Positions 2,951-52,141 of a stretch of DNA of 64,000 nucleotides are shown here, piece by piece. The DNA is taken from assembly GCA_965205015.1 (NCBI GenBank), contig OZ242029.1, positions 5,536,001 to 5,600,000 of the forward strand, given 5' to 3'. Positions within the stretch are counted from its first letter, which is position 1, and the number at the start of each line of letters is the position of its first letter. Source of the DNA: Candidatus Poribacteria bacterium. GTDB lineage: Bacteria; Poribacteria; WGA-4E; WGA-3G. The notes under the pieces were generated by a model. That model did no database searches, had not been told where the DNA came from, and worked only from the letters and a program-made list of their open reading frames with translations. The position numbers and the translations under genes are program-made.

Positions 2951-3580
2951 CTAAAATTTCTTTAATTGTGCCAGTATTGGCTCAGCACCGATACGTTTAC
3001 CATTCTTGACATCAAGGTATTTCCACGCGATGTTACCATCCTGATTAACAATATAGGTCGTTGGACGTGCCACCTCGACCTCACTCGGATCAACCACATT
3101 ATAAGCCTCAATCGTCTTCGTGTTTTCATCCGAGAGCAAGAGATAGGTGATTTGAAGCATCTGCTGCGTTGAATTAGCATCCGCTATAGGATCGGAACTG
3201 ATAGCGATAAGTTCGGCACCTTCGGCTTGAATCTCTTCATAACCTTCCTGCAACTCACCGAGTTGCGTTCGACAGTCGCCTCATGTGCCGGTCCGGTAGA
3301 AAACAATAACGAGTTTCTGCCCGCGATACTCCGAAAGCGTATGGAATTCCCCATCACCATCTGGAAGTGAGAAGTCGGGTGCGAGTGCTCCGAGGTCCAA
3401 CCCTTCGCCCATTGGGAGTTTTTTCGCTGCGTCCTCTGGGGCTGTTACAACGTGGGTCGCCCGTTCTGCGTTGTCACAAGCGAGGCATAAGAAAATAATC
3501 ACAGTACACAGAACTGAGAAACCCGCTAAAGTCGCCTTCCTCGAAAATGGCGATCTCAGTTTTATAATCCAATTGTCCAT
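2951..3580 (-). CDS. AhpC/TSA (peroxiredoxin-like) redoxin lipoprotein, putative selenoprotein (UGA at 3281-3283, UxxC)
   Basis: ORFs 3281..3595 and 2951..3253 are in one frame; readthrough gives APDFSLPD...LVIVFYRTGT-U-GDCRTQLGELQEGYEEIQAEGAELIAISSD...RPTTYIVNQDGNI; ATG at 3580 overlaps the sulfatase stop (ATGA); hydrophobic leader ending CLAC. Confidence 0.88.
3250..3266 (-). promoter_or_regulatory. Putative bacterial SECIS hairpin
   Basis: GCAACTC-GGT-GAGTTGC perfect 7-bp stem; loop starts 21 nt after the in-frame UGA. Confidence 0.7.
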
Positions 3581-4911
3581 CAGTTTCGATTGCATGTTTC
3601 AGGTCTCCCTTCATCGGCTTGTGCGTGCATCCAGTGCCGGACATCGGCGCGCATCTCTTCAAGAATTGGACGCATTTCCGCACTGAACGCCAAATTGTTG
3701 AACTCATACGGATCCGTCGTCACATCATATAATTCCTCTACCGGGTGATGCTGCGTGAGATAAACGAGTTCTGCCGTTTGCGGATCGGTCTCGGCTTTCT
3801 CTACCCAACTGTTCCACACCTCGGCGTGGCTTTCTGGAATGCCTGCAACCTCAGTGAAGTGGGTTGTCCATCTGTTTTCGGGCATCAGGTTCAAGATGTA
3901 TTTATAGCGGGTAGTGCGAACACAGCGCTGTGGGAATACATTCATATCTCCGTCGCGGGTATGCGTGCCATAGATTTTATCGCGGAAAGTCGTTTGTCGT
4001 CCGAGCAGGACATTCTTAAAACTGCTGCCGTCCAAACCGTCCAAGGGTTCACCACCAGCGATCTCTATAAGCGTCGGAAAGAAATCAACGTGTGAAACCA
4101 TCGCGTCCGAGACAGTGTCGGCTGGGATCTCGCCGCGCCATTTGGCGAGAAAGGGTAGACGGATACCGGTGTCATATAAAGTCCATTTGCAGTGGGGCCA
4201 CTCGGCACCGTGATCGGTCGTGTAGATGAAGAGTGTATTGTCGGCATATCCGTGTGTCTCTAACATTTTATTTACTGCGCCGATGCGGGCATCCATTGTT
4301 GTGATGTCTTGATAGTAATTGGCAAGCGCATTTCGAGCGATGGGCGTATCAGCGATATAGGGCGGTAGCGGCAAAGTGTCTGGATTATAAATTTTGTTCG
4401 GTTCCCATGTGACATGCGGATTGCTATCACCGAGGATGAGACAGATGGGTTGATCCGGATTCTCCCGTCGATGGCTTGAAAGAAAACGTTCAACCGGGGC
4501 GGTATCAAGTCCTTCTGCCCGATACTTCCGATCATGCTCGGCACGCTTTGGCAGGAAACCCCCGATATACTCAAAATCGAAGAGAGGCTCCGGTTTCACA
4601 TGCGTTTTACCGGCGATCGCCACGCGATAACCGAGCTCTCGAAGTGTCCGTGGTAAGGCTTTAAGATGAGCGTGGCACTCCGTATGATTGCCCATTGCAC
4701 CGTGTCGAGCTGGATATAACCCCGTATACAGGGTGGAACGAGACGGCGCACATGTCGGTGTCGGTGTGAAAGCGTGTGTAAAACGGACTCCTTCCTCGGC
4801 GAGACGATCTAAATGTGGCGTTTGGATCTGGGCATTTCCGTAACAACCGAGGTATTCCCAGCCGTGATCATCGGACAGGTAGACAACGATATTTGGCTTC
4901 TTTGATGGCAT
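3580..4911 (-). CDS. Cys-type (formylglycine) sulfatase
   Basis: PNIVVYLSDD, CAPSR signature, GKTH, DHG, ELYD..DPYE..NLA. Confidence 0.93.
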   Translation of the reverse strand: MPSKKPNIVVYLSDDHGWEYLGCYGNAQIQTPHLDRLAEEGVRFTHAFTPTPTCAPSRSTLYTGLYPARHGAMGNHTECHAHLKALPRTLRELGYRVAIAGKTHVKPEPLFDFEYIGGFLPKRAEHDRKYRAEGLDTAPVERFLSSHRRENPDQPICLILGDSNPHVTWEPNKIYNPDTLPLPPYIADTPIARNALANYYQDITTMDARIGAVNKMLETHGYADNTLFIYTTDHGAEWPHCKWTLYDTGIRLPFLAKWRGEIPADTVSDAMVSHVDFFPTLIEIAGGEPLDGLDGSSFKNVLLGRQTTFRDKIYGTHTRDGDMNVFPQRCVRTTRYKYILNLMPENRWTTHFTEVAGIPESHAEVWNSWVEKAETDPQTAELVYLTQHHPVEELYDVTTDPYEFNNLAFSAEMRPILEEMRADVRHWMHAQADEGRPETCNRN

Positions 4912-5863: not shown

Positions 5864-6454
5864 CTACGCAAAGAGGTCTTGAACCTGACATTGAAACCCT
5901 TCGACAACGTCCCCGCCATCAAGGATGTCAGTTCCACGTAAAACGGTAAAATCCTCGTTGGAGCGATACACCTCCACTGTTTCCCGTCGTGGATTGATGA
6001 CCCATACCATTGCACAACCCGCAGTTAACCACTCTTCCACCTTTTCAGCAACCTCGGCGTAGGTATCGCCAGGGGAGATGACTTCAACAGCCAAATCCGG
6101 AGCCCCCTCCCAATAACCCTTGACGATACCTTGACCTTCAACCGAGGCTTGTCGAACAAAAGCGGCATCTGGTGCGCGCACTGTATCAGGATTTTGGGCA
6201 ATCTTAAAACCTGTTTCGGCACCGCAAACATATCCTAATTGATGTGCTCTCACATGCACGTTAAGTTTGCTTCCAATTTCAGCAGCGCAGATGCCATGCT
6301 CAAATCCAGCAGGTGGCATTTTTTGCAGTACTCCTTTCACGAGCTCATAGCGAGTGCCATCATCGGGCTGCTTGGCGAGATCATCAGCCGTTAAAAGATT
6401 GTGTTGCGCAGCTGGCAATGTAGGTTTGGGTTGATTCATCCGCGGGTCTGCCAC
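5864..6454 (-). CDS. Uma2 (DUF820) family PD-(D/E)xK endonuclease-like protein
   Basis: RYELVKG, H, RAPD, PDLAVEVISP motifs; GTG start after AAGGAGG. Confidence 0.88.
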   Translation of the reverse strand: MADPRMNQPKPTLPAAQHNLLTADDLAKQPDDGTRYELVKGVLQKMPPAGFEHGICAAEIGSKLNVHVRAHQLGYVCGAETGFKIAQNPDTVRAPDAAFVRQASVEGQGIVKGYWEGAPDLAVEVISPGDTYAEVAEKVEEWLTAGCAMVWVINPRRETVEVYRSNEDFTVLRGTDILDGGDVVEGFQCQVQDLFA

Positions 6455-6532
6455 GATGCCCTCCTTAAGAGAATATTTAACAATCTTTGGCTTCTTATAT
6501 GATAACACTTGCAAGCACATCTATCAACTGCC

Positions 6533-7279
6533 TCAGCGACTCTTGAGGCGTCCCCAAGTGGTCGTGAGCAGACCGTTTGGAGAGACGGGTAGGACGGCTT
6601 CCACGCCTTTCATCAACTCAGCAATTTCTGCCTCCGTGATACCGCGGTCAAAGAAGATGACCTCGTCCAATCTACCGATAAACTTCTCACCGCCGAAGGT
6701 GCCAAACAGCAGTTCACCTGCCTGGTCTACATCACCGCCCTGTTTGACGGCAGATTCAAGCGCGCCGTCTACATAAAGTTTCATCTCACTGCCGTCGTAA
6801 AGTCCAACGATGTGATACCATTTTTCGGGGTCGATGACGGATGTTCCCCAGACACCGCCGGTAAATCCACCGCCCGACCAGATGCCAAAGACATAGCCGC
6901 CCGGTACTCGTTCAGTCGCTGATTGGACCTCCAATAGATAAGAACCGTTTCGTCGAATAGCGGTATCGGAAACGCCTTTATTCATATAGACCCACGTTGC
7001 GATAGTCATCTGGTCCTTGAAATTGATGCTATCGGAAGGTTCAACAGTCACAACATGCGGTGGTTCAAATTCCAACGCACCGCCGAATTTACCTTCTGCC
7101 CACTTCGCACCAGTGATTGCACCGTCGTTCCCGTTGCCCGAGGTATCCGCTGCAGTATTGCCGTTCCCTTCATCAAAAAGCCAGATGCCGACTGCATCGT
7201 CCAGCAGCTCAGCCGAAAGTTGACTTGTTGCCATACACAACAAGCCTCCAATGATCACAAACCAAAATATTCGTTTCAT
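6533..7279 (-). CDS. Secreted LamG domain protein with C-terminal TTW tail
   Basis: Signal peptide; WLFDEG.G..A.D.SGNG, GKFGGALEF, WYHI, GRLDEV; ends VSPNGLLTTTWGRLKSR. Confidence 0.88.
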   Translation of the reverse strand: MKRIFWFVIIGGLLCMATSQLSAELLDDAVGIWLFDEGNGNTAADTSGNGNDGAITGAKWAEGKFGGALEFEPPHVVTVEPSDSINFKDQMTIATWVYMNKGVSDTAIRRNGSYLLEVQSATERVPGGYVFGIWSGGGFTGGVWGTSVIDPEKWYHIVGLYDGSEMKLYVDGALESAVKQGGDVDQAGELLFGTFGGEKFIGRLDEVIFFDRGITEAEIAELMKGVEAVLPVSPNGLLTTTWGRLKSR

Positions 7280-7378
7280 TTTCTTTCCCCCTGATATACG
7301 AGTTTAGCAGAAAGGGGAAAATGTGTCAAGGGATAGCGATCACCTGAATCAGGATTTTAGGATTGGTAGGACAAACTC

Positions 7379-7422
7379 GTCTGAATCGCGGATTGCACAG
7401 ATGAAGCAGATGACGCGGATTT
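7379..7422. repeat. Dispersed intergenic repeat (GTCTGAATCGCGGA...GACGCGGATTT)
   Basis: The same two blocks recur at 44898-44923 with a shorter spacer. Confidence 0.6.
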
Positions 7423-7535
7423 AAGTATTTTTTATTCAATACCTATTCTTCCATAGAGGCAACATGATTTTCGGTTGAATTATTTAGGAAAGCGTGATAA
7501 ATTGAAAGAAACAGTATTGCTATGCGAATTGAAAA

Positions 7536-8276
7536 ATGCTAACGCAAGAAATGGTAGCCGATGTCCCTTCGGATCCGGGTGTTTATTTTTTTCGCGGGGC
7601 TTCGGGGAAAATCCTTTACATCGGCAAGGCGAAATGTCTACGAAAACGCGTCCGCTCCTATCTCCATAAGGTCAAAAGACGTCCAAACAAAATCAAACGG
7701 CTCATCCGGTGGACAACAGATGTCCGGTATCAGGTCTGTCGTTCGGAACAGGAAGCACTCTTCTTAGAATCGCGGCTCATCCAAGAGTATCAACCTTCCT
7801 ATAACACCGCGCTGAAGTTTGGACGGACCTCTTGGTATATTCGGATAGATATCGGAGAGGCTTTTCCGCGCCTTGAAAGAGTCCCCGAAACACAGCCAGA
7901 TGGTGCGAGATATTTCGGTCCGTTGTCGAGTCGGCGATGGACAGATGAAGCCATTGACGTTTTACAGCGGATCTTTCCGGTGCGGACCTGCGAAGGTGAG
8001 ATTACACCGATACCGGGATTTCGTGCCTGTTTTCAGTATCACCTAAAACGCTGCGATGCGCCTTGTGCTGCACGCATCACGCGTGAGCTTTATGGAGAAA
8101 TGATAACGGATATCGTCAATTTGCTGGATGGGGAGTATGAAGCAGTACAAACAAGTCTGGTCTCGAAACGAGATGGAGCATCAGAGACACTGCAATTTGA
8201 GCGGGCTGCTGCGTTTCAAAAGCAGTTGCAGCGGATTCAGAAGGTCTTTACGTTTTTAGATGTCCACCGGAGGTAG
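7536..8276 (+). CDS. GIY-YIG nuclease similar to the UvrC N-terminal half (Cho-like), with Cys cluster and UVR motif
   Basis: PGVYFF..ILYIGKAK.LRKRVRSY, EALFLE..LI...P.YN, C..C.....C.APC, FERAA; lacks the UvrC RNase H and HhH domains. Confidence 0.85.
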   Translation: MLTQEMVADVPSDPGVYFFRGASGKILYIGKAKCLRKRVRSYLHKVKRRPNKIKRLIRWTTDVRYQVCRSEQEALFLESRLIQEYQPSYNTALKFGRTSWYIRIDIGEAFPRLERVPETQPDGARYFGPLSSRRWTDEAIDVLQRIFPVRTCEGEITPIPGFRACFQYHLKRCDAPCAARITRELYGEMITDIVNLLDGEYEAVQTSLVSKRDGASETLQFERAAAFQKQLQRIQKVFTFLDVHRR

Positions 8277-8333
8277 ATTTTGGGGTATTTGGTGTGCAAT
8301 TTGGACGGATTTGTATTAATTTGAAAAAAAATC

Positions 8334-8362
8334 TTGCCTAAAAAATTAATACGTGTTAGAAT
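8334..8362 (+). promoter_or_regulatory. Sigma70-type promoter of the first HMA gene
   Basis: TTGCCT-17 bp-TAGAAT, followed by an AAGGAGG RBS before ATG 8393. Confidence 0.55.
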
Positions 8363-8392
8363 AACGAATAAGTAATTCAAGGAGGTTAACCC

Positions 8393-8779
8393 ATGCATAT
8401 CGCAAGATTATCGCTTATTTGTCTTATTGCTTTCGTATTCATGGTAGGCTGTGGTCTGATTGGGAAAGAAGCAGAGATGCCTGAAACCACCACAGCTGCT
8501 ATGGACGGTGCTGAAATGAAATCCGACATGAAGACGGATGGCGACATGATGGAAGCCGCCGTTGAAGAAGTTACACTGAACGTTACAGGGATGACGTGAG
8601 GCGCGTGTACCAGCAAGGTGCAGGATGCACTCAGTAAAGTCGTCGGGGTTTCTGAAGTGGTCAGTGTTTCTTCAACGGATAACACGGCTGTTGTGAAGGT
8701 TGAGAAAGGTAAAGTTAAGTCTGCCGATCTCACGACAGCAGTTCAAGGTGCCGGCTTCAGTGCCGAAGTCGCTCAATAA
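8393..8779 (+). CDS. HMA-domain (CopZ/MerP-like) lipoprotein 1, putative selenoprotein (UGA 8597-8599, GMT-U-GAC)
   Basis: Lipobox MVGC; readthrough gives VTLNVTGMT-U-GACTSKVQDALSKVVGVSEVVSVS...AVVKVEKGKV..ADLTTAVQGAGFSAEV, ending TAA at 8777-8779; a complete HMA fold with GMTCxxC. Confidence 0.92.
8617..8631 (+). promoter_or_regulatory. Putative SECIS hairpin of HMA gene 1
   Basis: GGTGCA-GGA-TGCACT; loop 23 nt after UGA. Confidence 0.7.
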
Positions 8780-8793
8780 GGCTGAATCGGAGG

Positions 8794-8820
8794 GGGTGGG
8801 GTGACCCACCCTTTCTTTCT
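8794..8820 (+). terminator. Intrinsic terminator after HMA gene 1
   Basis: GGGTGGG-GTGA-CCCACCC then TTTCTTTCT, 15 nt after the readthrough stop codon. Confidence 0.65.
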
Positions 8821-8900
8821 ATAGGAACAGGTTGCAAACCACAACTCTCTTGCAGCCTTAATTCAAATAAAGTTTCAACCATCAGCGTTGAAGTTGAAGA

Positions 8901-8926
8901 GGCGCGATCGAGAGATCGTCCCTACA
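8901..8926 (-). repeat. GTAG-type REP-like palindrome
   Basis: Minus strand GTAGGGACGATC-TCTC-GATCGCGCC; similar to 17126-17149. Confidence 0.6.
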
Positions 8927-8944
8927 CATAAGGGGATTAAACTT

Positions 8945-9289
8945 ATGCGTCAGTTAAACGTGAGCCTGCTATTCGTTTGCTTGGCAGCACTGCTGTTTGT
9001 GTTCGCGTGCGCAGACACAGCAAAGAAAGAGGCAGAAGAGGCAGCACCCGCGCAAACAGCAGCACCAGCCATTGAAGAAGTAACGCTGGCTGTGACCGGT
9101 ATGACATGAGGCGCGTGTACCAGCAAAGTGCAGGATGCACTCACAAAGCTTACCGGTGTGACTGAGGTCGTCAGTGTTTCTATGGAAGAAAATAAGGCTG
9201 TGGTGAAAATTGAGAAGGACAAGGTTGAGAAAGACGCGCTCGTGAAAGCGGTTACAGACGTAGGTTTCAGCGCGCAAGTCGCTAACTAA
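8945..9289 (+). CDS. HMA-domain lipoprotein 2, putative selenoprotein (UGA 9107-9109, GMT-U-GAC)
   Basis: AAGGGG RBS, lipobox VFAC; readthrough gives VTLAVTGMT-U-GACTSKVQDALTKLTGVTEVVSVSMEENKAVVKIEKDKV..DALVKAVTDVGFSAQVAN, ending TAA at 9287-9289. Confidence 0.92.
9127..9141 (+). promoter_or_regulatory. Putative SECIS hairpin of HMA gene 2
   Basis: AGTGCA-GGA-TGCACT perfect 6-bp stem; loop 23 nt after UGA. Confidence 0.7.
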
Positions 9290-9324
9290 TTTTAATTTTA
9301 CCTTAGCTTAAAACCCTATTAGAG

Positions 9325-9357
9325 AAAAAAAATGCGAGGTTGTACCTCGCATTTTTT
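9325..9357. terminator. Bidirectional intrinsic terminator
   Basis: A-tract ATGCGAGG-TTGTA-CCTCGCAT T-tract between convergent genes. Confidence 0.8.
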
Positions 9358-9387
9358 GTTTTCTCCAGAAATTATCCGATGTCTCAA

Positions 9388-10251
9388 CTACTGTCCCTTA
9401 TTCGCATAAAGCGGATCATCCAGCAGGGACTGCACCTCGTAGATGGAGCCTTTCAACTCTGCGTAGGGTTCCGGCATACGCACAGGTGCAGCGACCATCC
9501 GTGGCTGATTCGTCGGCTCGCCACGGATAATCGTGTCGTTGAAAGTCTCCCAATCCGGAATGCCCTTCAGGGGCCACGCATCTACAGCACAGTATTGGGC
9601 AAGCATCAAGCGGCGCGGTTTGTCTGAGGTATTCGGGGCAGAGCCGTGCAGTGCCCGAACGTGATGGATCGTGATACCACCCGCCTTCAACTCAACAGGT
9701 TCAGCACCTTCCGGTGTGAAATCGGGGTCAGTAACCGCACCGATAAAAGCACCGTCCTGGTGATGGTCTAACGTCGGTCCCTTGTGGGAACCGGGAAGTA
9801 TCATCAACGCCCCGTTCTCTACAGTCATATCGTCAATCACGACCCCGACTGCAAGCAGATCGTCGTTGGTGTGCGGATAGAACGCCCAGTCCTGATGCCA
9901 TTCAACCGGACTTCCGAACTCCGGATACTTCATGTTCAATTTATGTCCATTATACCGAACCCCCGGTCCGATGAGTTGCTCCACAATATCCAAAATATTG
10001 GGGTGCCGTAAGGCGTAATCGTAAACGACGTGGTGTAGCCCCGGATTCTTGATACGCCGCACGCGCGGGTTCGCCGGCGTATGCCCCGGTTCCAAGTCGA
10101 AGATGTCGGTATGTTCGGTGACTTCTCTCGATTTTTCGACGAATTCATCGGTGACGCGTTGGAGATCGGCGACCTCTTCTGCTGTCAACACCGCTTCAAC
10201 GCCGAGGTAACCCTTCTCGTCGTAAAAATCACGTTGTTCTTGTGTGAGCAT
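9388..10251 (-). CDS. PhyH family dioxygenase
   Basis: KLNMK, WHQD, ENGAL..LPGSH, HGSAPN. Confidence 0.92.
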   Translation of the reverse strand: MLTQEQRDFYDEKGYLGVEAVLTAEEVADLQRVTDEFVEKSREVTEHTDIFDLEPGHTPANPRVRRIKNPGLHHVVYDYALRHPNILDIVEQLIGPGVRYNGHKLNMKYPEFGSPVEWHQDWAFYPHTNDDLLAVGVVIDDMTVENGALMILPGSHKGPTLDHHQDGAFIGAVTDPDFTPEGAEPVELKAGGITIHHVRALHGSAPNTSDKPRRLMLAQYCAVDAWPLKGIPDWETFNDTIIRGEPTNQPRMVAAPVRMPEPYAELKGSIYEVQSLLDDPLYANKGQ

Positions 10252-10308
10252 TATCCTGCTCCTCCTAAGGAAGTGATATTGTTATTATACGTCAAAACGA
10301 TAAAAATT

Positions 10309-11475
10309 TCAACCCTTAATTAACAATTTCTCATAAACATTTTGTACCTTCCGGACATGCATTTCAACGCCGAACGCTGCTTCAGCATATTTTCTTGCCT
10401 GTTGCCCCATACGTACGCTTCGGGTCGGATTCTTGACGAGTTCAACAATTTTATCTGCAATTCCGTCTATGGGGTCTAACGGCACAATGTATCCTGTTTT
10501 ACCGTGAACAATCATTTCAGGCAGGCTCGGAGACTGCCATTCCAGTTGCAGATCTACAACGTATCCTGTTTCACCGTGGACAATCATTTCAGCAGTACTG
10601 CCAACCGGGGTTCCGATGACAGGCTTACCTGCCGCCATCGCCTCGGCGATGACACTCCCCGCTGAAAGGGTTACGAGTAGATCGAGCTCTTGCATCGCCT
10701 TGGGCATATCGGTGCGGTGCCCTGTGAAGCGAACACGTTCCTGTAACCCATATTTGGCTATCAATTGACGGACCTCTTGTTCATAGGTTCGATGCTCCGG
10801 TGTCCCCAGCGTGCCCCCGATAATACGAAACCTAACCCCCTTGCACTGTGCCGCGACCTTGGCGGCTATCTCAACGAACGCTTTCTGACGTTTGAAGGGT
10901 TCAATCCTACCGACAATACCGACGACATATTCCGCCGAGTGAACGGGATCAGAAACGGGTTGAAAAGCCGATACGTCAACACAATTATGGACGACCTCAA
11001 TTTTTTGGGGGGCAATCCCTGCTTGAATCAGTGGAACACTGCTCTGCTCCGAGATAGCGATGATACTGTCCATCCGGGCGAATTTGTATTTTCGGACTTG
11101 GGTCAGCGTAAGGAGATTCCGCACATGCGAAACGACAGGAATTTTCAACTGTTTTCTAACCGACCATAGATACGGGTTGAACCACGAGTCGGACGTATGG
11201 ATTAGGCATGTGTTGTGCGTTTCGGCAAGTGAAACTAACTTTCTGACGGCACTGTACCTCGCTACCCATGATTTCGCCTTTCGCCACGGCGGAAGATCGA
11301 GAATCACCGTCGGAATATCTATCCCCCTTAAGTGTTCAGCGAAAACACCATCATCAGGGCAAACAACAAGCGGACGATAGCGCGTTCGATCCATATTTTC
11401 GACGAGATAAGCAAGTTGCTTCTCACCGCCACCGATGCTCGAACCACAATGGCTGAGGTAAAGTATCGAAATCAT
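10309..11475 (-). CDS. Glycosyltransferase family 4
   Basis: GGGE, VGRIEPFKRQ, EAMAAGKPVI; contains an internal 24-aa-period duplication. Confidence 0.9.
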   Translation of the reverse strand: MISILYLSHCGSSIGGGEKQLAYLVENMDRTRYRPLVVCPDDGVFAEHLRGIDIPTVILDLPPWRKAKSWVARYSAVRKLVSLAETHNTCLIHTSDSWFNPYLWSVRKQLKIPVVSHVRNLLTLTQVRKYKFARMDSIIAISEQSSVPLIQAGIAPQKIEVVHNCVDVSAFQPVSDPVHSAEYVVGIVGRIEPFKRQKAFVEIAAKVAAQCKGVRFRIIGGTLGTPEHRTYEQEVRQLIAKYGLQERVRFTGHRTDMPKAMQELDLLVTLSAGSVIAEAMAAGKPVIGTPVGSTAEMIVHGETGYVVDLQLEWQSPSLPEMIVHGKTGYIVPLDPIDGIADKIVELVKNPTRSVRMGQQARKYAEAAFGVEMHVRKVQNVYEKLLIKG

Positions 11476-11487
11476 CCCTTCAAAGGT

Positions 11488-12063
11488 TCATACGTCAAAT
11501 TTGACGCGTCTATAAATAGCATGCAAGGGCAGTTCACAATGGATTGAAACAAGTGGCAATACCTGTTCTAACAAACAAAATTCGGTCTCTATCCACTGGA
11601 GTCCTTGGCGAAGATAGTGCTCAACACACACCCTGTCTTGTGAGATAAGGAGATACTCTTGCAAGGACGTAAGTTGCTTATAACGCTCAAATTTTTCATT
11701 TCTGTCATACGCTGCGGTGGAAGGAGAAAGCACCTCCACAACGACAGTCGGATTGAGTAATGTGTCGAACTCGTCATCTTCAAAGCGCGGTTCATCACAC
11801 ACAACGACAACATCTGGGTAAATGTAAGATGCTGGTTGGTGAGTCCGGACCCGCATGTCGCTGGCATAAACCTCACATTCCTGATTTATTAATTGATTGT
11901 AAAACTGGTTCGCCGTATTCATCGTGATAAGATTATGCGAGCGACTTGCTCCAGGCATTGCGATCCTCTTTCCACTCAAGTATTCACTTTTCGTAGCTGC
12001 CTTGCGTTCCAAAATGAGGTATTGTTCAGGTGTCAGGCGAGTCTGGACTGCGACAGATGACAT
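11488..12063 (-). CDS. Uma2 family endonuclease-like protein
   Basis: SEYLSG, H, YPDVVV, VEVLSPST...DR.EK. Confidence 0.9.
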   Translation of the reverse strand: MSSVAVQTRLTPEQYLILERKAATKSEYLSGKRIAMPGASRSHNLITMNTANQFYNQLINQECEVYASDMRVRTHQPASYIYPDVVVVCDEPRFEDDEFDTLLNPTVVVEVLSPSTAAYDRNEKFERYKQLTSLQEYLLISQDRVCVEHYLRQGLQWIETEFCLLEQVLPLVSIHCELPLHAIYRRVKFDV

Positions 12064-12136
12064 GATGCTCTCCGTGAATTTGTCTTTGCTTTAAGCACAA
12101 CTGAAAACCAAACTTATGAAAAGAACGCTGTAAACG

Positions 12137-13132
12137 CTACACAGGAAAATCAAGGTGCTGATCCCGGAAAACCTGACTCACCGATCGGTGTTGATGGACT
12201 CTCAGTATGGCTTGGGAGAGGAGGGGTGCGATAGAAAGCACTTTAACCTTCCCATCAAGTTGCTTTTCAGCAGGAACAGGAATCGTATTGGTGGTAACCA
12301 CTTCGCGAATTGCGGGATGACTGAGCCGTTCCAACGCTGGACCCACCAATATAGGGTGTGCGATACACACATAAGCGGGTTCCGCCCCCGCCTCTGCCAA
12401 GGCGATGGCTTGTTGACGAATCGTTCCCCCTGTTTGTATTTCATCGTCGGTAATAATTGGGGTTTTGCCTTTGACATCTCCAACAAGCTCGACGAACTTA
12501 ACGCCCTGTCCATCAATGCCGGTTCGCCGCTTGTGCATGATGGCTAACGGGAGTCCAAGAATATCCGCATATTTTTCTGCTAATTTGGCGCGACCTGCAT
12601 CAGGGGCAACAATTACACCATTTTCAACCTGCTTCTCGCGGAAGTAATTCGTCAAGGTCGTTAGGGCAGTCAAGTGATCCATAGGGATATCAAAGAAGCC
12701 CTGTATCTGCGGTACGTGTAGATCGATAGCCATGACGCGACTCGCCCCAGCGGTGGTCAAGAGATTCGCCACGAGTTTTGCACTGATCGGTTCGCGCCCT
12801 GTCGTTTTGTGATCTTGGCGTGAGTATCCAAAGTATGGAATAATCGCGGTAATCTGCCGGGCTGATGCGCGTTTCATGGCATCGATCGTGATGAGCAGTT
12901 CCATCAGATTTTCGTTGGCAGGTTGACTCGTTGGCTGCACAACATAAATATCGGTGCCTCGGATACTTTCCTCAATCTGAACGCGAGTCTCCAGGTTGGG
13001 AAACGGCTCAATTGTAATTTTACCGAGCTCAACACCTAACATCGCAGCGATATCTTTTGCCAACGCCGGGTTCGCGCTGCCAGCGAATAGCCTGAAATCG
13101 TCGTTAACTTGCTGATCAATCAGTGGGGACAT
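12137..13132 (-). CDS. prs: Ribose-phosphate pyrophosphokinase
   Basis: FAGSANP.LA, PYFGYSRQD, DLH..QIQGFF, APDAG, DDEIQTGGT. Confidence 0.95.
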   Translation of the reverse strand: MSPLIDQQVNDDFRLFAGSANPALAKDIAAMLGVELGKITIEPFPNLETRVQIEESIRGTDIYVVQPTSQPANENLMELLITIDAMKRASARQITAIIPYFGYSRQDHKTTGREPISAKLVANLLTTAGASRVMAIDLHVPQIQGFFDIPMDHLTALTTLTNYFREKQVENGVIVAPDAGRAKLAEKYADILGLPLAIMHKRRTGIDGQGVKFVELVGDVKGKTPIITDDEIQTGGTIRQQAIALAEAGAEPAYVCIAHPILVGPALERLSHPAIREVVTTNTIPVPAEKQLDGKVKVLSIAPLLSQAILRVHQHRSVSQVFRDQHLDFPV

Positions 13133-15264: not shown

Positions 15265-15843
15265 TTATGAGGCGTTGAACATGACGCGTCTGTAGATGGC
15301 ACGCAAGGGCAGCGTGCATTCAATTGAAGCAAGTGGTAGCATATCTTCAAGATGTTCAAAGGTATTGTGGATCCATTGGGAACCTTGGCGACGGTAGTGT
15401 TCAACACGCACGTTGTTCTGTGAAACGAGGATATATTCTTGCAAAGATGCGATCTGCTTATAATGTTCAAATTTTTCACCGCGGTCAAACGCTGCGGTTG
15501 AGGGAGACAGCACTTCTATGACAAGCATCGGATTGAGGAGCGTATCAAAGGTGTTATCCTCAAAACGGGGTTCACCACAAACAACAATAACATCCGGATA
15601 GAAGTAGGATATCTCCGGGCTCGTCCGCACACGCATCTCGCTGGCGAAGACTTCACACTCACTATTCATTAATTGGTTGCCCAGTTGGATTGTTATGTCT
15701 ACCGTAATGCGGTTATGCGAGCGACTTGCCCCAGACATCGCGATTATCTGTCCATTGTAGTATTCGTTTTTAAAGGGCTGCTTGCGTTCCCAAGCGAGGT
15801 ATTCCTCGGAAGTTAGATGTGTTTGTGCAGTAAGTGTTGACAT
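15265..15843 (-). CDS. Uma2 family endonuclease-like protein
   Basis: Close paralog of 11488..12063; YPDVIV, IEVLSPST. Confidence 0.9.
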   Translation of the reverse strand: MSTLTAQTHLTSEEYLAWERKQPFKNEYYNGQIIAMSGASRSHNRITVDITIQLGNQLMNSECEVFASEMRVRTSPEISYFYPDVIVVCGEPRFEDNTFDTLLNPMLVIEVLSPSTAAFDRGEKFEHYKQIASLQEYILVSQNNVRVEHYRRQGSQWIHNTFEHLEDMLPLASIECTLPLRAIYRRVMFNAS

Positions 15844-21162: not shown

Positions 21163-21338
21163 ACATTTCCTTCTGCCGCTTCAAAGTTTCAACAATCACA
21201 TATTAGCATGTTCCAAAAGGAATGTCAAGTCCTTTTTACGATATACATCTCGCCCCGCTGAGGCTAAAGAACCGAAGGCATCGTATTACTATAAACATAA
21301 CGCCCTTACAGGACTTTGGGTATTCGCAAGGGTAGGAT

Positions 21339-21992
21339 TTAAACAGCGCGCTCAATAGACCAATGCCGATCTGTGCTCTGGACGACAATGGCACCCAGCA
21401 TGTCCATCTGTGTCAGCATCTCGTTGACTTCGGCAAGGGTGAACGCGGCGAGGAAGGAGTCGTAGTAGAGTTTTTGTTGGTAAGGGGTATCATCCGCGGC
21501 ATACTTGTCTACAAAGGCTTGTGCAGCCGCTGGGGTTTCAGGACGGATGAGGTCGCGGATCAGAACTGTCCCTTGCGGACGGGCAACCCTGCCCATCTCT
21601 TTGAGTGCCGACATCGCATCGTGGATGTGATGCACAATGCTGTTGGAGATGAGTCCATCAAAGGTGTTGTCGGGGTAGGGGAGGGTTTTGGCATCGATGC
21701 ATTCGAGGGTTATCCGATCGGTGAGACCGGCATCTGCGATGTGATGTTTCGCTATCTTTAGCATTTCTTCGGACAGGTCAAGGGCGGTGATGTGGATATC
21801 TGGACAACGTTGGGCGAGGAGGATCGGAATCTGTGCGGGACCGGTGCCGACATCGAGAAAATGCCCAGTGCTCGCACCGAGTGCGACAACGCGGTCTACA
21901 AAAGCCTGATCAACCTCACCGTGCTCCATCGCATCGTAGGCTTCGGCGGCTTCCGCTGTATCCATGACTTCTGGTTCTACAATTCGTTTCAT
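21339..21992 (-). CDS. Class I SAM-dependent methyltransferase
   Basis: LDVGTGPA, LDLSEEML, DAKTLPYPDNTFD, SNSIVHH. Confidence 0.9.
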   Translation of the reverse strand: MKRIVEPEVMDTAEAAEAYDAMEHGEVDQAFVDRVVALGASTGHFLDVGTGPAQIPILLAQRCPDIHITALDLSEEMLKIAKHHIADAGLTDRITLECIDAKTLPYPDNTFDGLISNSIVHHIHDAMSALKEMGRVARPQGTVLIRDLIRPETPAAAQAFVDKYAADDTPYQQKLYYDSFLAAFTLAEVNEMLTQMDMLGAIVVQSTDRHWSIERAV

Positions 21993-22776
21993 TCTCTGAT
22001 TCTCTGATGATTTGAGTGACAGTCAACGCGTTTTGACGAATTTGATCGGGTTGAAATTGCGTGTACATGCCGACCGCCATTGCGTCTGTTGGCTTGATAT
22101 TCTCAAGCGCGAGTTCAAAGGCTTCATGTGGCTCGTTCCGACCCGCGGCTAATACCTTTATGGCGATTATCGGCATCGGTATTGCCTGTATCGTAGCGAA
22201 TGCTGCATATCGATCGTCGGGCAGATAGAGCTCCCTGTGTTTCGTATGATTATACAACGCGCAGACATAAAAGTCAACATCATAACCTTCAGTGTAGCAG
22301 TACTTGAGCACCTGCGGATCATGCGTGCCGAGTCCGACCGCACAACCGAGGTCTCGGATCCGTTTGAGTCCATCGCGTAAGGACCCGAGTTGTCCTTCTG
22401 CATATAACTTATCCGTTGTCCCACCGTGGTGATAGATCGCGATCGGTCTATAGCGAGCGATAATCTGTAGGTAATCGTCAAGGTTGGCGTATTCTGTATC
22501 TTTGGGTGTCTGAGCGATCCACTGAATAGTGCCACCGGTGTTCCAGTACTCGTTGAGCGTCCGCATGATATGCCTATCGGCGCGAGCGAGGACGGTGTTA
22601 ATTCCGCTCTCCTCTGCTTGCCGGAGGTCCGACATAATTCGGTGCGCCGTATAGTAATCCTCCATAGCTTTTGATGCCGCGGCGGAGCGGTGTGAGATGC
22701 CACTATACGGATTACCGCCGATGATAAGTCGTGTGACGCGATGCGATGCGATAGAAATTGTGGGTAGTTTCATCAT
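21916..22776 (-). CDS. Conserved hypothetical protein, aldo/keto-reductase-like TIM barrel
   Basis: VTRLIIGGNP.SG.SH, GLGTH, AIKVLAAGR; 3' end overlaps the methyltransferase start. Confidence 0.65.
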   Translation of the reverse strand: MMKLPTISIASHRVTRLIIGGNPYSGISHRSAAASKAMEDYYTAHRIMSDLRQAEESGINTVLARADRHIMRTLNEYWNTGGTIQWIAQTPKDTEYANLDDYLQIIARYRPIAIYHHGGTTDKLYAEGQLGSLRDGLKRIRDLGCAVGLGTHDPQVLKYCYTEGYDVDFYVCALYNHTKHRELYLPDDRYAAFATIQAIPMPIIAIKVLAAGRNEPHEAFELALENIKPTDAMAVGMYTQFQPDQIRQNALTVTQIIRESENETNCRTRSHGYSGSRRSLRCDGAR

Positions 22777-22777
22777 G

Positions 22778-23263
22778 TTATCTTGTGATTCCAAGCTCCT
22801 CTGGAGAAAAGTGAGGAATCCGGGAACCCGCACTGGGGTTCAGATCCCTTTCTGCGGAAATTTTGTAAATTGCACCCTTTGTGTCTGTATGAAACATAAG
22901 TTGATACATTTCAACTGTTGTCTCCGGAGCCTGTGCTATGCGCTGTCCCATGTTAACTGATTGTCTGCTGGAAATGATTTCGTGGTGTGCCAGCTGTAGA
23001 AAGGTCACCGATGGGATCTGATAGATGTAAATTTTTGAACCTGTGTCGGTGTTACTGATTCCATGGGGTGTTCCCCATTCCCGAATCGCCTTTGAAATGT
23101 GCCTTCCGTGCCACACTTCCAGAAGTTGCTGTATTTCTGCCCGCTGTATTTCTTTCTCTGGTGAGGGTTCGGGGGCATTCATCAAATACTTCGATGCCGT
23201 ACACCCTGCCAGTAAAACGCTTGCGATAAACGCTAAGTATAAAGGGAACGCAAATCTGTTCAT
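22778..23263 (-). CDS. Hypothetical lipoprotein
   Basis: Lipobox LAGC; W.G......I..WG.P SmpA/OmlA-like pattern. Confidence 0.65.
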   Translation of the reverse strand: MNRFAFPLYLAFIASVLLAGCTASKYLMNAPEPSPEKEIQRAEIQQLLEVWHGRHISKAIREWGTPHGISNTDTGSKIYIYQIPSVTFLQLAHHEIISSRQSVNMGQRIAQAPETTVEMYQLMFHTDTKGAIYKISAERDLNPSAGSRIPHFSPEELGITR

Positions 23264-49304: not shown

Positions 49305-49985
49305 CTAATGCTTTTCAAGTAGCTGCTTAAGATCCTCAATGAAATGCTCAAACAGCTTGACTTTATCACTCTCCTCAAGTGCTTCCGCTGTTAGCACATA
49401 CGTGCCATCAAGATCCACTTCTGCAATGATTCGTGGTTTTTTTGCAGTATCCATCCGCGTCAAGTCTTTGTCTCTATCAGGTGTAATCAAATAAACTTTG
49501 ATGTGTTTTGTATTCTCACTGTTCTGAAACTTGGACTTCCAGTAACTTGTTTGGACAACTCGTTCTCTCAAAGATGTTTTACTTGAAATAACAGCAATGA
49601 CTCGCGATTTCTCAGGTTCGTAAATAACAATGTCAGCATCAGGTAATAGTTCTCCAAATCTGCCGTAATTAATTGTCAAATTTTGCTTAACGGCAACCAA
49701 CTCTTGTGGTAGCCGTCGCCCCTTTAATTTCCTGCCGCCAATTACTTTTACTCCATGCGATTCAATTGCCTCTGTGATAATATGTTGGAGGAGCTTTTCA
49801 AAATTATTCCCGATGAAAGAACGCCAACTCTGACCTTTGTCTTTATCTGGAGCATGTATAGTAAGGTAGGCGTAGCGAAGTTCTCGTGCCTTTTCCAACA
49901 GTTCATGGATATATTTATAGGCTTCTGTTCCTCTCTCCACCACCATTTCGTCATACAAATTTTTCAAATCTTCAAAGCAATCCAC
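49305..49985 (-). CDS. BsaWI/Cfr10I-like type II restriction endonuclease, paralog 2
   Basis: PDADIV...SSKTSLRER..QT.YW; GTG at 49985 after AAAGGAG gives the same 226-aa length as paralog 1. Confidence 0.75.
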   Translation of the reverse strand: MDCFEDLKNLYDEMVVERGTEAYKYIHELLEKARELRYAYLTIHAPDKDKGQSWRSFIGNNFEKLLQHIITEAIESHGVKVIGGRKLKGRRLPQELVAVKQNLTINYGRFGELLPDADIVIYEPEKSRVIAVISSKTSLRERVVQTSYWKSKFQNSENTKHIKVYLITPDRDKDLTRMDTAKKPRIIAEVDLDGTYVLTAEALEESDKVKLFEHFIEDLKQLLEKH

Positions 49986-50140
49986 AGTGCCTACTCCTTT
50001 AAAACAATAATGATGTACGTCAGTCAGATACATCTCTATCCTAGATGAATATAATACAAACCCCTTTTTTGTCTTGGACTCCCACTGCGCCGTGGTGAAT
50101 GTCCATACAAAAGTACTTTACATCCAAAGCAGATATAGCA

Positions 50141-50821
50141 CTAATTATTCTCCAGCAGTTGCTTAAAATCCTCAATGAAATGCTCAAACAGCTTGACTTT
50201 ATTGCTCTCCTCCAGATTTGCTTCCGTTAGTACATAGGTACCATCAAGATCAATCTCTACAATAGCCCTTCCTTTCTTTGGAAGATATGTACTTGTCAAG
50301 GTGCCATCCTCGTCAGGTGTTATAAAATAAACCTTGATATGTTCTGTGGTTTCACTTTCCAGAAGTTTGAGTTTCCAATAACCTGTTTGGGCAATTCGCT
50401 CGCGCAATGTAACTTTGCTTGAAATGAGAGCAATTACTTTCCAATCCTTGGGGTCGTAAACCACAATATCAACATCAGGTAAATGCAAGCCAAATTCACC
50501 ATAGTCAATCGCCAGATTTCGCTTAACTCGACTCAGTTCTGGCGACAAGTTTCTACTTCGTTCTAACTTATTGCCATTAATCACATTCATACCAAGGGCT
50601 TCAATTGATTCCGTAATAATATGCTGGATTAACTTTTCAAAATTCTTTCCCTTGAAAGCCCGCCAACTCTGTTCATGGTCTCCATTGGGTTTGTCCCTCA
50701 AAAAATCCTGCTTATGACGTTCTTTTGCATCCTGCAAAAGTTGGGAAACCGTTTTGTAGGCTTCTGTCCCTTCTATCAATTGTCTGGCATTGTACATATC
50801 TTTCAAATCATCAAATTTCAT
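50141..50821 (-). CDS. BsaWI/Cfr10I-like type II restriction endonuclease, paralog 1
   Basis: QSWRAFKG.NFE, PDVDIV...SSKVTLRERIAQTGYWK; directly downstream of the DNA methyltransferase. Confidence 0.8.
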   Translation of the reverse strand: MKFDDLKDMYNARQLIEGTEAYKTVSQLLQDAKERHKQDFLRDKPNGDHEQSWRAFKGKNFEKLIQHIITESIEALGMNVINGNKLERSRNLSPELSRVKRNLAIDYGEFGLHLPDVDIVVYDPKDWKVIALISSKVTLRERIAQTGYWKLKLLESETTEHIKVYFITPDEDGTLTSTYLPKKGRAIVEIDLDGTYVLTEANLEESNKVKLFEHFIEDFKQLLENN

Positions 50822-50827
50822 AATTCT

Positions 50828-52141
50828 CTATTCCTTTAGCCCAATAACGATATACTCCGTCGGATACGCTTCGGAATCAGCTTTATCCTTGCTAGCAAAT
50901 CGTCCTGTTTTCTCGTCCCTTTTTTGGGGGAGAATCTTCAGTGGAATTTCGCGCTTTATGAGTCGATCCAATTTAAAACCTGATTGTTGCAAAGTCTCTG
51001 CGAACGCCTCAGCGTTAAGTATATCAACACCTTTTAACTTAGTATTTCCAATCACATAGCAACATCTACCGCCCGGTCTCAGGATCCTGAAACTTTCGTC
51101 AAAAACTTCCTGCATGTCAACAAAAAAGGCTTCAATCTCCTTTGCCTTTCTTCTGCTTTTAGATAGCATCTCAGCAACAATGTTGGAAGCAATTTGACTT
51201 GATAGTGGCTTGTTTTCGTACTGCTTGTAAGAGGTCCCAATGAACTCCTTCCTATACTCTTGAAGATCATCTGCAAAATCTAACCAAAGCGTTGAGAGTT
51301 GATGCAGATCGGCATATTCATAACTTGTCACATATGGACTTGAACTGACAATTATATCCACACTGTCAGCCGGTACAGGTTGCGCTTTAGCAGAACCGGG
51401 CCGGAGATTCAAATAATTGTCGGGATTATTCCTAACCTTAGGCGGTACAACATCATAAAACTGAGCATTTCCCTTCAGCATTTTCAAAAGGTGTCTTTTG
51501 ATAGCATCATAGGGAGATGTAGGACGCTTTTTTAAATCACGCGTTGGTTTGGTACTACCTTGACTCCAAATTGAACATGTTTTGAGAACATGACTAAATG
51601 CAACAAGTAGGAAGGATTGAATATCCGAGTCAGCTTCATCAAAAATCACAGCTAGGATTTTCCCCAATTCGTCCCGAACTTCTTCCGTAAACCAATAATC
51701 AATTCTCTCTAGGTGTTTATCTGGAATATGTGGTTGTCCCTGATTTCCATTAAAGAAACTATAAGTATCCTTGGAACACCAAATCCTCGAAAGAAATTGC
51801 TTAACTTTTTCCTCAAGGTAGTCGGGTCGAACTGCTGTCGCTTTCACTCCGGTCACTAAGTGAGCAACTTTATTAATGTCCGTTCCACTCGCGTGAAATC
51901 CGCGCGATATAGCACTAACAATGGTCGTTCCACATCCCATAAACGGATCATTGACACTAGCAGTCCGATCATTTATGTACTCATCCAGCAGACGTTCAAC
52001 AAGCTGTGGAATAAACTTAGCAGGGTAGCGGTGGTAACCGTGTGTCCATTTCCCTGTGTCTGATGGCTTACAACCGTCGAACGACCACGCTTTGTCAATG
52101 GAGGTCTGGTCGAACCACTCAAAAATCTCATTCGGCTCCAT
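50828..52141 (-). CDS. Amino (probably N4-cytosine) DNA methyltransferase, alpha-type motif order
   Basis: HGYHRYPAKFIPQ, DPFMGCGTT (motif I), VDIIVSSSPY (motif IV), RILRPGG. Confidence 0.88.
   Translation of the reverse strand: MEPNEIFEWFDQTSIDKAWSFDGCKPSDTGKWTHGYHRYPAKFIPQLVERLLDEYINDRTASVNDPFMGCGTTIVSAISRGFHASGTDINKVAHLVTGVKATAVRPDYLEEKVKQFLSRIWCSKDTYSFFNGNQGQPHIPDKHLERIDYWFTEEVRDELGKILAVIFDEADSDIQSFLLVAFSHVLKTCSIWSQGSTKPTRDLKKRPTSPYDAIKRHLLKMLKGNAQFYDVVPPKVRNNPDNYLNLRPGSAKAQPVPADSVDIIVSSSPYVTSYEYADLHQLSTLWLDFADDLQEYRKEFIGTSYKQYENKPLSSQIASNIVAEMLSKSRRKAKEIEAFFVDMQEVFDESFRILRPGGRCCYVIGNTKLKGVDILNAEAFAETLQQSGFKLDRLIKREIPLKILPQKRDEKTGRFASKDKADSEAYPTEYIVIGLKE

Follow-up and report, generated by a model that had tools for sequence, protein, structure and literature searches.

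The genes treated here belong with small metal-binding proteins of the HMA fold. MerP (TIGR02052; structures 1osd and 1afi) consists of one exported HMA domain whose site is of the GMTCxxC type, and is made as a cleaved, soluble protein; CopZ and Atx1, of the same fold and with a GMxCxxC site, are proteins of the cytoplasm without a signal peptide that deliver metal to the HMA domains of their partners. Versions with selenocysteine (Sec, U) at the site are also on record. Entries of the Global Ocean Sampling (GOS) selenoproteome table include a Sec “MerP”, a Sec mercuric transport protein and a UxxC cation ATPase (PMC2398784), and the NCBIfam model NF041115 (UxxU_metal_bind) describes a small HMA-like metal-binding (seleno)protein with Sec in its metal loop, which figures as “putative mercuric reductase / metal-binding protein, UxxU” in passages of PMC9312934 and PMC13188914. 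UxxC has likewise been predicted computationally in a metal-handling HMA/ATPase protein, the UxxC P-type ATPase. Here we analysed a 64-kb stretch of DNA from a sponge-associated bacterium, Candidatus Poribacteria (the window, by which we mean the whole stretch) that carries two adjacent genes, A and B, each with an in-frame UGA in place of the first Cys codon of GMTCxxC. These UGA codons very probably encode selenocysteine, and the genes, as read from their sequence, are real and specify exported HMA lipoproteins. An initial annotation of the window had described Sec-HMA proteins as known only sporadically from metagenomes. That description falls short, as they already stand in curated selenoprotein lists and NCBIfam models (NF041115, UxxC P-type ATPase, MerP), and the pair is a phylum-wide addition to these known Sec-substituted HMA metal-binding proteins.

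The products of A and B differ from each described system. Unlike MerP, they have Sec for the first Cys, a lipid anchor and a long tether. NF041115 is the best NCBIfam match of gene B, yet it gives only 47.7 and 63.5 (gene B) bits against a cut-off of 95, and the window motif is UxxC with one Sec, preceded by a lipoprotein signal and tether. Whereas the Sec domain of the UxxC P-type ATPase is cytoplasmic and lies in the pump, in Poribacteria the HMA domain of the pump has Cys and the exported forms have Sec; the same genomes hold a separate CopZ-like gene with Cys. NCBIfam CopZ models reach at best 57 bits (cut-off 85), one of them being the best match of gene A at 53.1 bits, and neither gene reaches the cut-off of any NCBIfam family. 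CusF, CopC/PcoC and the “Mets” motifs of Ctr1 are methionine-rich binders of Cu(I) and Ag(I). The tether of paralog A is also rich in methionine, a chemistry used for Cu(I) in oxidising compartments; the likeness noted here is one of composition, and in A the Met segment forms an unstructured tether that leads to a Sec-HMA domain. A stand-alone family of UxxC HMA lipoproteins was not found in the literature searched; paper supplements lay outside that search and may list such proteins. The words HMA, lipoprotein and Poribacteria are absent from PMC13188914, and Poribacteria are named in a passage of PMC13582414 among the phyla with Sec hydrogenases.

Both paralogs have the build that the initial annotation had given them, with a ribosome-binding site, a lipoprotein signal (FMVGC in gene A, FVFAC in gene B), a linker and an HMA domain with TGA at its first Cys; sequence and translations agree on this, and hairpins with T tails lie where a terminator had been placed after each readthrough stop (Table 1). 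It had described the linkers as low-complexity; that of gene A is methionine-rich throughout the phylum and so more than low-complexity. After each TGA come 59 sense codons and then TAA, and the two proteins share the segment ...VTGMT-U-GACTSKVQDAL.... The Pfam HMA profile (PF00403) spans the TGA in both, over profile positions 1-61 of 62, with 36.5 bits for gene A and 43.4 for gene B (cut-off 24.8).

Table 1. Features of the gene pair and its immediate surroundings in the window.
Feature	Position	Strand	Basis
Gene A, Sec-HMA lipoprotein, 128 aa, U = residue 69	8393..8779	+	Translation with TGA as U; Pfam HMA across TGA; TGA in orthologues
Gene B, Sec-HMA lipoprotein, 114 aa, U = residue 55, Met-free Ala/Glu/Pro/Thr linker	8945..9289	+	Translation with TGA as U; Pfam HMA; AlphaFold2 (AF2) model
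Gene A ribosome-binding site AAGGAGG, 7 nt 5' of ATG	8379-8385	+	Sequence reading
Gene B ribosome-binding site AAGGGG, 9 nt 5' of ATG	8930-8935	+	Sequence reading
Gene A signal peptide, lipobox F-M-V-G-C (Cys20)	8393..8452	+	PROSITE-type lipobox pattern
Gene A tether, rich in methionine (6 of 38 residues)	8453..8566	+	Linker composition
Gene A HMA domain (beta-alpha-beta-beta-alpha-beta)	8567..8776	+	Pfam; fold modelled on paralog B
Gene A UGA, candidate selenocysteine, first ligand of GMT-U-GAC	8597..8599	+	Translation, conservation in relatives
Gene A candidate SECIS (selenocysteine insertion sequence) apical hairpin: 6-bp stem, GGA triloop, 23 nt from UGA to loop	8617..8631	+	Alignment, folding
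Gene B signal peptide, lipobox F-V-F-A-C (Cys22)	8945..9010	+	Lipobox pattern
Gene B UGA, candidate selenocysteine	9107..9109	+	Translation, conservation in relatives
Gene B candidate SECIS apical hairpin	9127..9141	+	Alignment, folding
Promoter-like TTGCCT-17-TAGAAT (with TG), 5' of gene A	8334..8362	+	Consensus scan, pattern match only; 1 site versus 1.2 expected in shuffles
Terminator-like hairpin 3' of gene A	8798-8812, with T tail to 8822	+	Hairpin scan
Terminator-like hairpin with T tail, 14 pairs, between gene B and convergent PhyH gene	9327..9357	+	Hairpin scan

The TGA is conserved among relatives. A scan of 175 genomes of the phylum gave 590 matches in 164 genomes, and the 150 best matches were evaluated. 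Exactly one in-frame TGA is present in 146 of these 150 best of 590, spread over 88 genomes; the remaining four are a copy with an 11-residue deletion, a 51%-identical Cys paralog and two Cys domains of one poly-HMA protein. When U/C variation was mapped across relatives, as the initial annotation had proposed, 70 of 76 distinct HMA-domain sequences (from the window and 50 loci) had TGA at the first ligand and six had Cys in the same column, and the UxxC motif was present in 70/70 Sec domains. In the window and in loci L001-L029 the first-ligand codon is TGA in every HMA gene of this type; in L030 it is TGC, and matches from outside the Poribacteria carry TGC or TGT. The 30 best loci encoding relatives all come from Candidatus Poribacteria assemblies, and window positions 7000-13000 are syntenic with the five closest genomes, at a DNA identity of 84-89% over most pieces and up to 94% over one. 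That the same TGA should be kept at a metal ligand had been called unlikely for decaying genes, and its frequency among relatives is far beyond chance. One copy of gene B, 95% identical, lacks 11 codons that comprise the whole T-G-M-T-U-G-A-C-T-S loop with its UGA (NCBI record P0007; G131:C167:8998-9306); it may be a natural variant that has lost the site, or else an artefact of assembly.

Standard gene callers end both genes at the TGA. Seemingly full-length database proteins show W at the position, which is TGA called under code 4, and public records otherwise hold UGA-terminated fragments only. On their face such records would fit decaying pseudogenes, or genes that yield just the 68-aa and 54-aa lipopeptides with UGA as a true stop. 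The frame nevertheless stays open for exactly the same number of codons downstream in both genes, the downstream part completes the HMA fold, and the TGA falls at the same ligand position in nearly all of the best matches. The downstream segment is also under purifying selection. Across 22 genomes with both genes, the ratio of nonsynonymous to synonymous substitution (dN/dS, by the Nei-Gojobori method) was computed over codons +12 to +58 after the UGA. Gene A gives 0.147 from 231 pairs and gene B 0.119 from 229 pairs; dS is ~0.7, so that the sequences compared are well diverged. Relaxed selection after the UGA had been named as an outcome that would speak against Sec; the values of 0.12-0.15 show the opposite. 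Pseudogenes or short lipopeptides are very improbable and already contradicted by these data.

The W in some database gene calls could alternatively reflect a genome in which UGA is reassigned throughout to Trp, Gly or another residue (codes 4 or 25). Against this, TGA ends 12 of the 59 long open reading frames (ORFs) of the window, among them GatA and UvrD with full-length Pfam matches, and the codon in genes A and B aligns with the metal-ligand Cys of Cys homologues. Relatives also have the apparatus for Sec. In the five closest genomes a tRNA-Sec was found (78.1 bits in four, 59.5 in one) that adjoins selB, and selA (~600 bits), selB (~350) and selD (~360) are each above cut-off in 5/5; the initial annotation had asked for this check and had regarded a lack of Sec machinery as fatal. 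Across the phylum selA is above cut-off in 162/175 genomes, and ARAGORN reports a tRNA-SeC with anticodon tca in 2/3 loci scanned. Genome-wide reassignment is scarcely credible and is already contradicted. The selD gene of all five close genomes itself has one in-frame TGA (L086, L087 and three more), and SelD is, by this in-frame codon, a putative selenoprotein in its own right in this lineage. No tRNA lies within the window.

The window holds a second UGA gene, at 2951-3595 (-), with TGA at 3281-3283 and the motif T-U-G-D-C. It encodes an AhpC/TSA-redoxin-type lipoprotein, in which Pfam AhpC-TSA spans the TGA with 108.5 bits. A hairpin of 7 bp, with GGU as its triloop, begins 15 nt beyond the UGA. 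Another readthrough candidate, 21289-22914 (-), would need 8 UGA codons and is not a selenoprotein.

Downstream of the UGA of genes A and B lies a strongly constrained RNA element. We aligned 70 distinct 48-nt stretches with column 1 at the start of the UGA. Columns 22-25, 27, 31, 32, 34 and 35 are invariant, and columns 21-26 pair with 30-35 in a short hairpin with a 6-bp stem and a triloop of the form G-G/U-N; 420/420 cells are paired, versus 9-52% in controls with the stem slid along the alignment. Several third positions that could vary synonymously are frozen: Val +7 is GUG in 70/70, Gln +8 CAG in 68/68, Asp +9 GAU in 52/52 and Ala +10 GCA in 69/70, whereas over the 59 long ORFs of the window GUG makes up 22% of Val codons, CAG 43% of Gln, GAU 62% of Asp and GCA 26% of Ala. 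Other conserved codons of the domain have third-position entropies of 0.7-1.9 bits. These frozen synonymous sites are the strongest point for an RNA signal. The six Cys-domain counterparts retain 3-5 of the 6 stem pairs, and in one of them the peptide VQDAL is unchanged, yet a synonymous change breaks the stem. The bacterial SECIS model as set out in a passage of PMC13188914 has a loop of 3-9 nt with G in its first two positions, a stem of 4-16 bp, a spacing of 16-37 nt and an energy of <= -7.5 kcal/mol; the 3-nt loop, the loop G, the 6-bp stem and the 23-nt spacing all fit it. The 42-nt stretch from the UGA folds at -18.2 (gene A) and -13.8 (gene B) kcal/mol into an alternative, long hairpin. 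This long minimum-energy hairpin, which starts at the UGA and occupies columns 1-37, has 88.6% of its cells paired, no better than shuffles, and for this reason we prefer the short hairpin.

Beyond the UGA the proteins complete an HMA domain, as had been annotated. The AF2 model of gene B, built on a 72-row alignment, gives a predicted local distance difference test (pLDDT) score of 85-94 for residues 41-114 and a beta-alpha-beta-beta-alpha-beta order (strands 43-51, 72-79, 84-90 and 109-113; helices 58-67 and 96-105), with U55 in the loop that leads into helix 58-67 and Cys58 in the opening turn of the helix. Foldseek returned 75 PDB matches at E <= 0.001, and all among the matches listed are HMA domains. 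Oxidised MerP (1osd) comes first, with a template modelling (TM) score of 0.94, a root-mean-square deviation of 1.1 and 40% identity, followed by HMA domains of Cu-ATPases, MerP 1afi (42% identity) and, lower, CopZ; a PDB sequence search agrees. Two features typical of metal-binding HMA domains, the loop-5 Phe and the entire G-M-T-x-x-x-C motif, have been retained.

By a PROSITE-type rule applied as a pattern match, a lipobox precedes 67/69 first or only HMA domains; the two exceptions, both poly-HMA proteins, begin with another kind of hydrophobic N-terminus. Tethers fall into two types. Those of A type hold 3-10 Met in 34-53 residues in 34/65 distinct linkers across the phylum, against a Met background of 1.7% in 15 long window ORFs, and those of B type are rich in Ala, Glu, Pro, Thr and Gln, and Met-free in 28/31 linkers.

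The three close genomes whose HMA repertoire was read have five HMA domains each. Their single P1B ATPase has an N-terminal HMA domain with Cys, and a stand-alone CopZ-like ORF without signal peptide, 72 aa long in G001 (the one read), also has Cys. The other three domains are the two Sec lipoproteins and one in an open frame of ~540-550 aa. In G001 the latter is a 532-aa protein (L111:2980-4578 (-)) with a signal peptide, a planctomycete-type haem c (CQGCHH; PSCyt1, 40.7 bits), a WD40 propeller and a C-terminal Sec-HMA domain (GMT-U-AAC); in G002 and G005 the HMA matches with one TGA lie in the ~540-550-aa frames. Taken over the three genomes, 9/9 Sec-HMA domains are in proteins with a signal peptide and 6/6 cytoplasmic HMA domains have Cys. 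Bacterial genes with several UGA-Sec codons are rare. Among the relatives are two exported proteins of five HMA domains each, one with three Sec and two Cys domains (L023:6001-7200) and one with two Sec and three Cys domains (L024:5700-6900); the hairpin is kept at each of their Sec domains and lost at the Cys domains.

The explanation that best covers these observations is that A and B are Sec-HMA lipoproteins that handle soft metal outside the cytoplasm, with Cu(I) as the best candidate; we assign it a probability of roughly 65%. The data above show gene structure, UGA conservation, constraint on the RNA, the HMA fold, export signals and the Sec machinery of relatives; the mechanism, including the insertion of Sec as such, which metal is bound, which way it is passed and why Sec is used, is what we infer from them. 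The ribosome would read UGA 8597 and UGA 9107 as selenocysteine, with the hairpin in the mRNA, its loop 23 nt from the UGA, recruiting SelB with Sec-tRNA(Sec). The products would be exported and lipid-anchored on flexible tethers outside the cytoplasm, each ending in an HMA domain with U-x-x-C rather than C-x-x-C as its metal site. Both proteins may bind and pass on a soft metal, with Ag(I), Hg(II) and Cd(II) possible beside Cu(I), and the Met-rich tether of paralog A may capture Cu(I), as tethers of this kind do where conditions are oxidising. Where a CxxC pair tends towards the disulfide, a site with selenocysteine would stay deprotonated and nucleophilic and could readily be reduced again. 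The initial annotation had proposed extracytoplasmic Se-thiolate metal binders or redox proteins; the export signal and HMA fold fit that proposal, and the metal role within it is plausible.

A soft metal, and Cu(I) in particular, is favoured because exported HMA domains have Sec where cytoplasmic ones have Cys and because no mer genes were found. Three further grounds from which we infer that extracytoplasmic Cu(I) handling is favoured are the intact GMT-x-x-x-C motif, the Met-rich tether of paralog A and a need for periplasmic copper delivery without PCuAC: COX2 and SCO1 are present in 3/3 genomes, and PCuAC in 0/3.

Genuine Sec proteins built on an HMA scaffold might instead act as selenol/thiol oxidoreductases, their UxxC cycling between a selenenylsulfide and a reduced form with no physiological metal. 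UxxC is the commonest redox-selenoprotein motif in curated tables, the third Sec-HMA domain is fused to a haem c and a WD40 propeller, and the best structural match is MerP in its oxidised, disulfide form. The Sec redoxin lipoprotein in the window lies ~5 kb from the HMA pair, split AhpC/TSA ORFs lie ~3 kb from the HMA genes in four diverse loci (L092, L103, L101 and L025), and a redoxin of this kind could serve as reductant of the U-x-x-C site. However, the metal-binding motif and loop-5 Phe are retained whole, a Met-rich tether has no obvious redox role, and to our knowledge no HMA protein has thiol-disulfide exchange as its main function. We consider a purely redox role unlikely.

The two proteins might alternatively be MerP-like scavengers that would coordinate Hg(II) as Se-Hg-S in the periplasm and either sequester it or hand it to an unrecognised importer or reductase. 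Selenolates bind Hg with very high affinity, no solved structure is closer than MerP, and the five-domain poly-HMA proteins resemble sinks; a Sec “MerP” is, moreover, among the GOS entries (PMC2398784). Yet the MerP model TIGR02052 gives the window proteins only 45.6 and 47.7 bits, below its cut-off of 92.55. MerT was found in 0/3 genomes and MerA above cut-off in 0/3 (best 390 bits versus 454). No P-type ATPase, mer or MerR gene occurs among the 59 long window ORFs, which extends to the whole window the earlier remark that none is adjacent. Met-rich tethers are a trait of Cu(I)/Ag(I) binders and not of mercury proteins, and the genes are chromosomal, syntenic and phylum-wide, not mobile. Mercury scavenging appears improbable as the function of A and B.

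Several observations weigh against Sec-dependent Cu(I) handling as set out above. On the side of Sec insertion, ARAGORN found no tRNA-SeC in L081, the third locus scanned, and among the 88 genomes with a listed TGA form, four (G037, G117, G119 and G130) yielded no selA; their HMA matches all fall on high-numbered contigs, C66 to C439, in multi-contig assemblies, and incompleteness of the four is likely. The Sec machinery of the window genome itself would be presumed from its relatives and from the second selenoprotein gene. The hairpin shows one compensatory change, A-U to G-C, in two related sequences, so that its covariation amounts to a single event; the 25-nt hairpin piece folds at -7.0 kcal/mol, just weaker than the -7.5 of the model in the passage of PMC13188914; and Rfam at gathering thresholds gives 0 matches in the window, hence no curated SECIS family. 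In favour of readthrough, contigs from RNA libraries of 3 studies bridge both UGA codons, with no change at the TGA places among the difference rows listed; they indicate presence only, not translation. On the side of function, exported Cys forms exist (L030, one paralog in L090 and domains at the C-terminal end of poly-HMA proteins), so an HMA domain outside the cytoplasm need not have Sec. No conserved metal-related neighbours were found in 12 diverse loci (98 ORFs), and the case for Cu(I) would rest on the Met-rich tether and analogy.

Sec-HMA lipoproteins for soft metals could be placed in a selenium-based extracytoplasmic Cu(I) relay, an extension that we offer tentatively and regard as doubtful. 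Protein A would capture Cu(I) and pass it by HMA-to-HMA docking to B and to the haem c/beta-propeller/Sec-HMA protein, replacing the missing PCuAC in cuproenzyme maturation or serving detoxification; Sec would have been chosen for the oxidising compartment, and the scheme would extend to the poly-HMA proteins with up to three Sec.

Because public annotation stops at the UGA, a conserved family has been invisible that has three members per genome in many Poribacteria and related genes with up to three selenocysteines. Recognising the UGA together with the hairpin would mend gene calls in sponge-symbiont genomes, and the short, strongly constrained hairpin offers a compact candidate SECIS for a phylum without cultured members. 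The family also amounts to a natural experiment on why the cost of selenium is borne at a metal site, with exported HMA domains using Sec and cytoplasmic ones Cys within one genome, and Sec and Cys domains side by side inside single poly-HMA proteins.

In the window and in 9 diverse loci a GIY-YIG gene lies on the 5' side of the one or two HMA genes, and the other constant neighbours (PhyH, sulfatase, glycosyltransferase and PRPP synthetase) are, like it, not metal-related. In four diverse loci a secreted ORF of ~400 aa with an HNHGHQ motif lies directly 3' of the Sec-HMA genes on the same strand (L103:5763-7031, L092:5469-6659, L090:3630-4826 and L096:3625-4854); it does not occur in the window, matches no Pfam or NCBIfam family, and its Atlas relatives are unnamed clusters.

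The gene content of the window fits Poribacteria, with three PhyH genes, several LamG and Uma2 genes, a sulfatase, GFO/IDH/MocA oxidoreductases and ThuA. Three genes of the Uma2 family (putative restriction endonuclease-like) fall within 10 kb, at 5864-6520, 11488-12063 and 15265-15843 (-). Pieces of DNA from one of the three have matches of 65-72% identity at many sites in related genomes, which suggests, from sequence matches, that the Uma2 genes form a large paralogous family. At 49305-52141 (-), two neighbouring homologues of BsaWI-type restriction endonucleases stand beside an N6/N4 DNA methylase, likely a restriction-modification locus with a duplicated nuclease.

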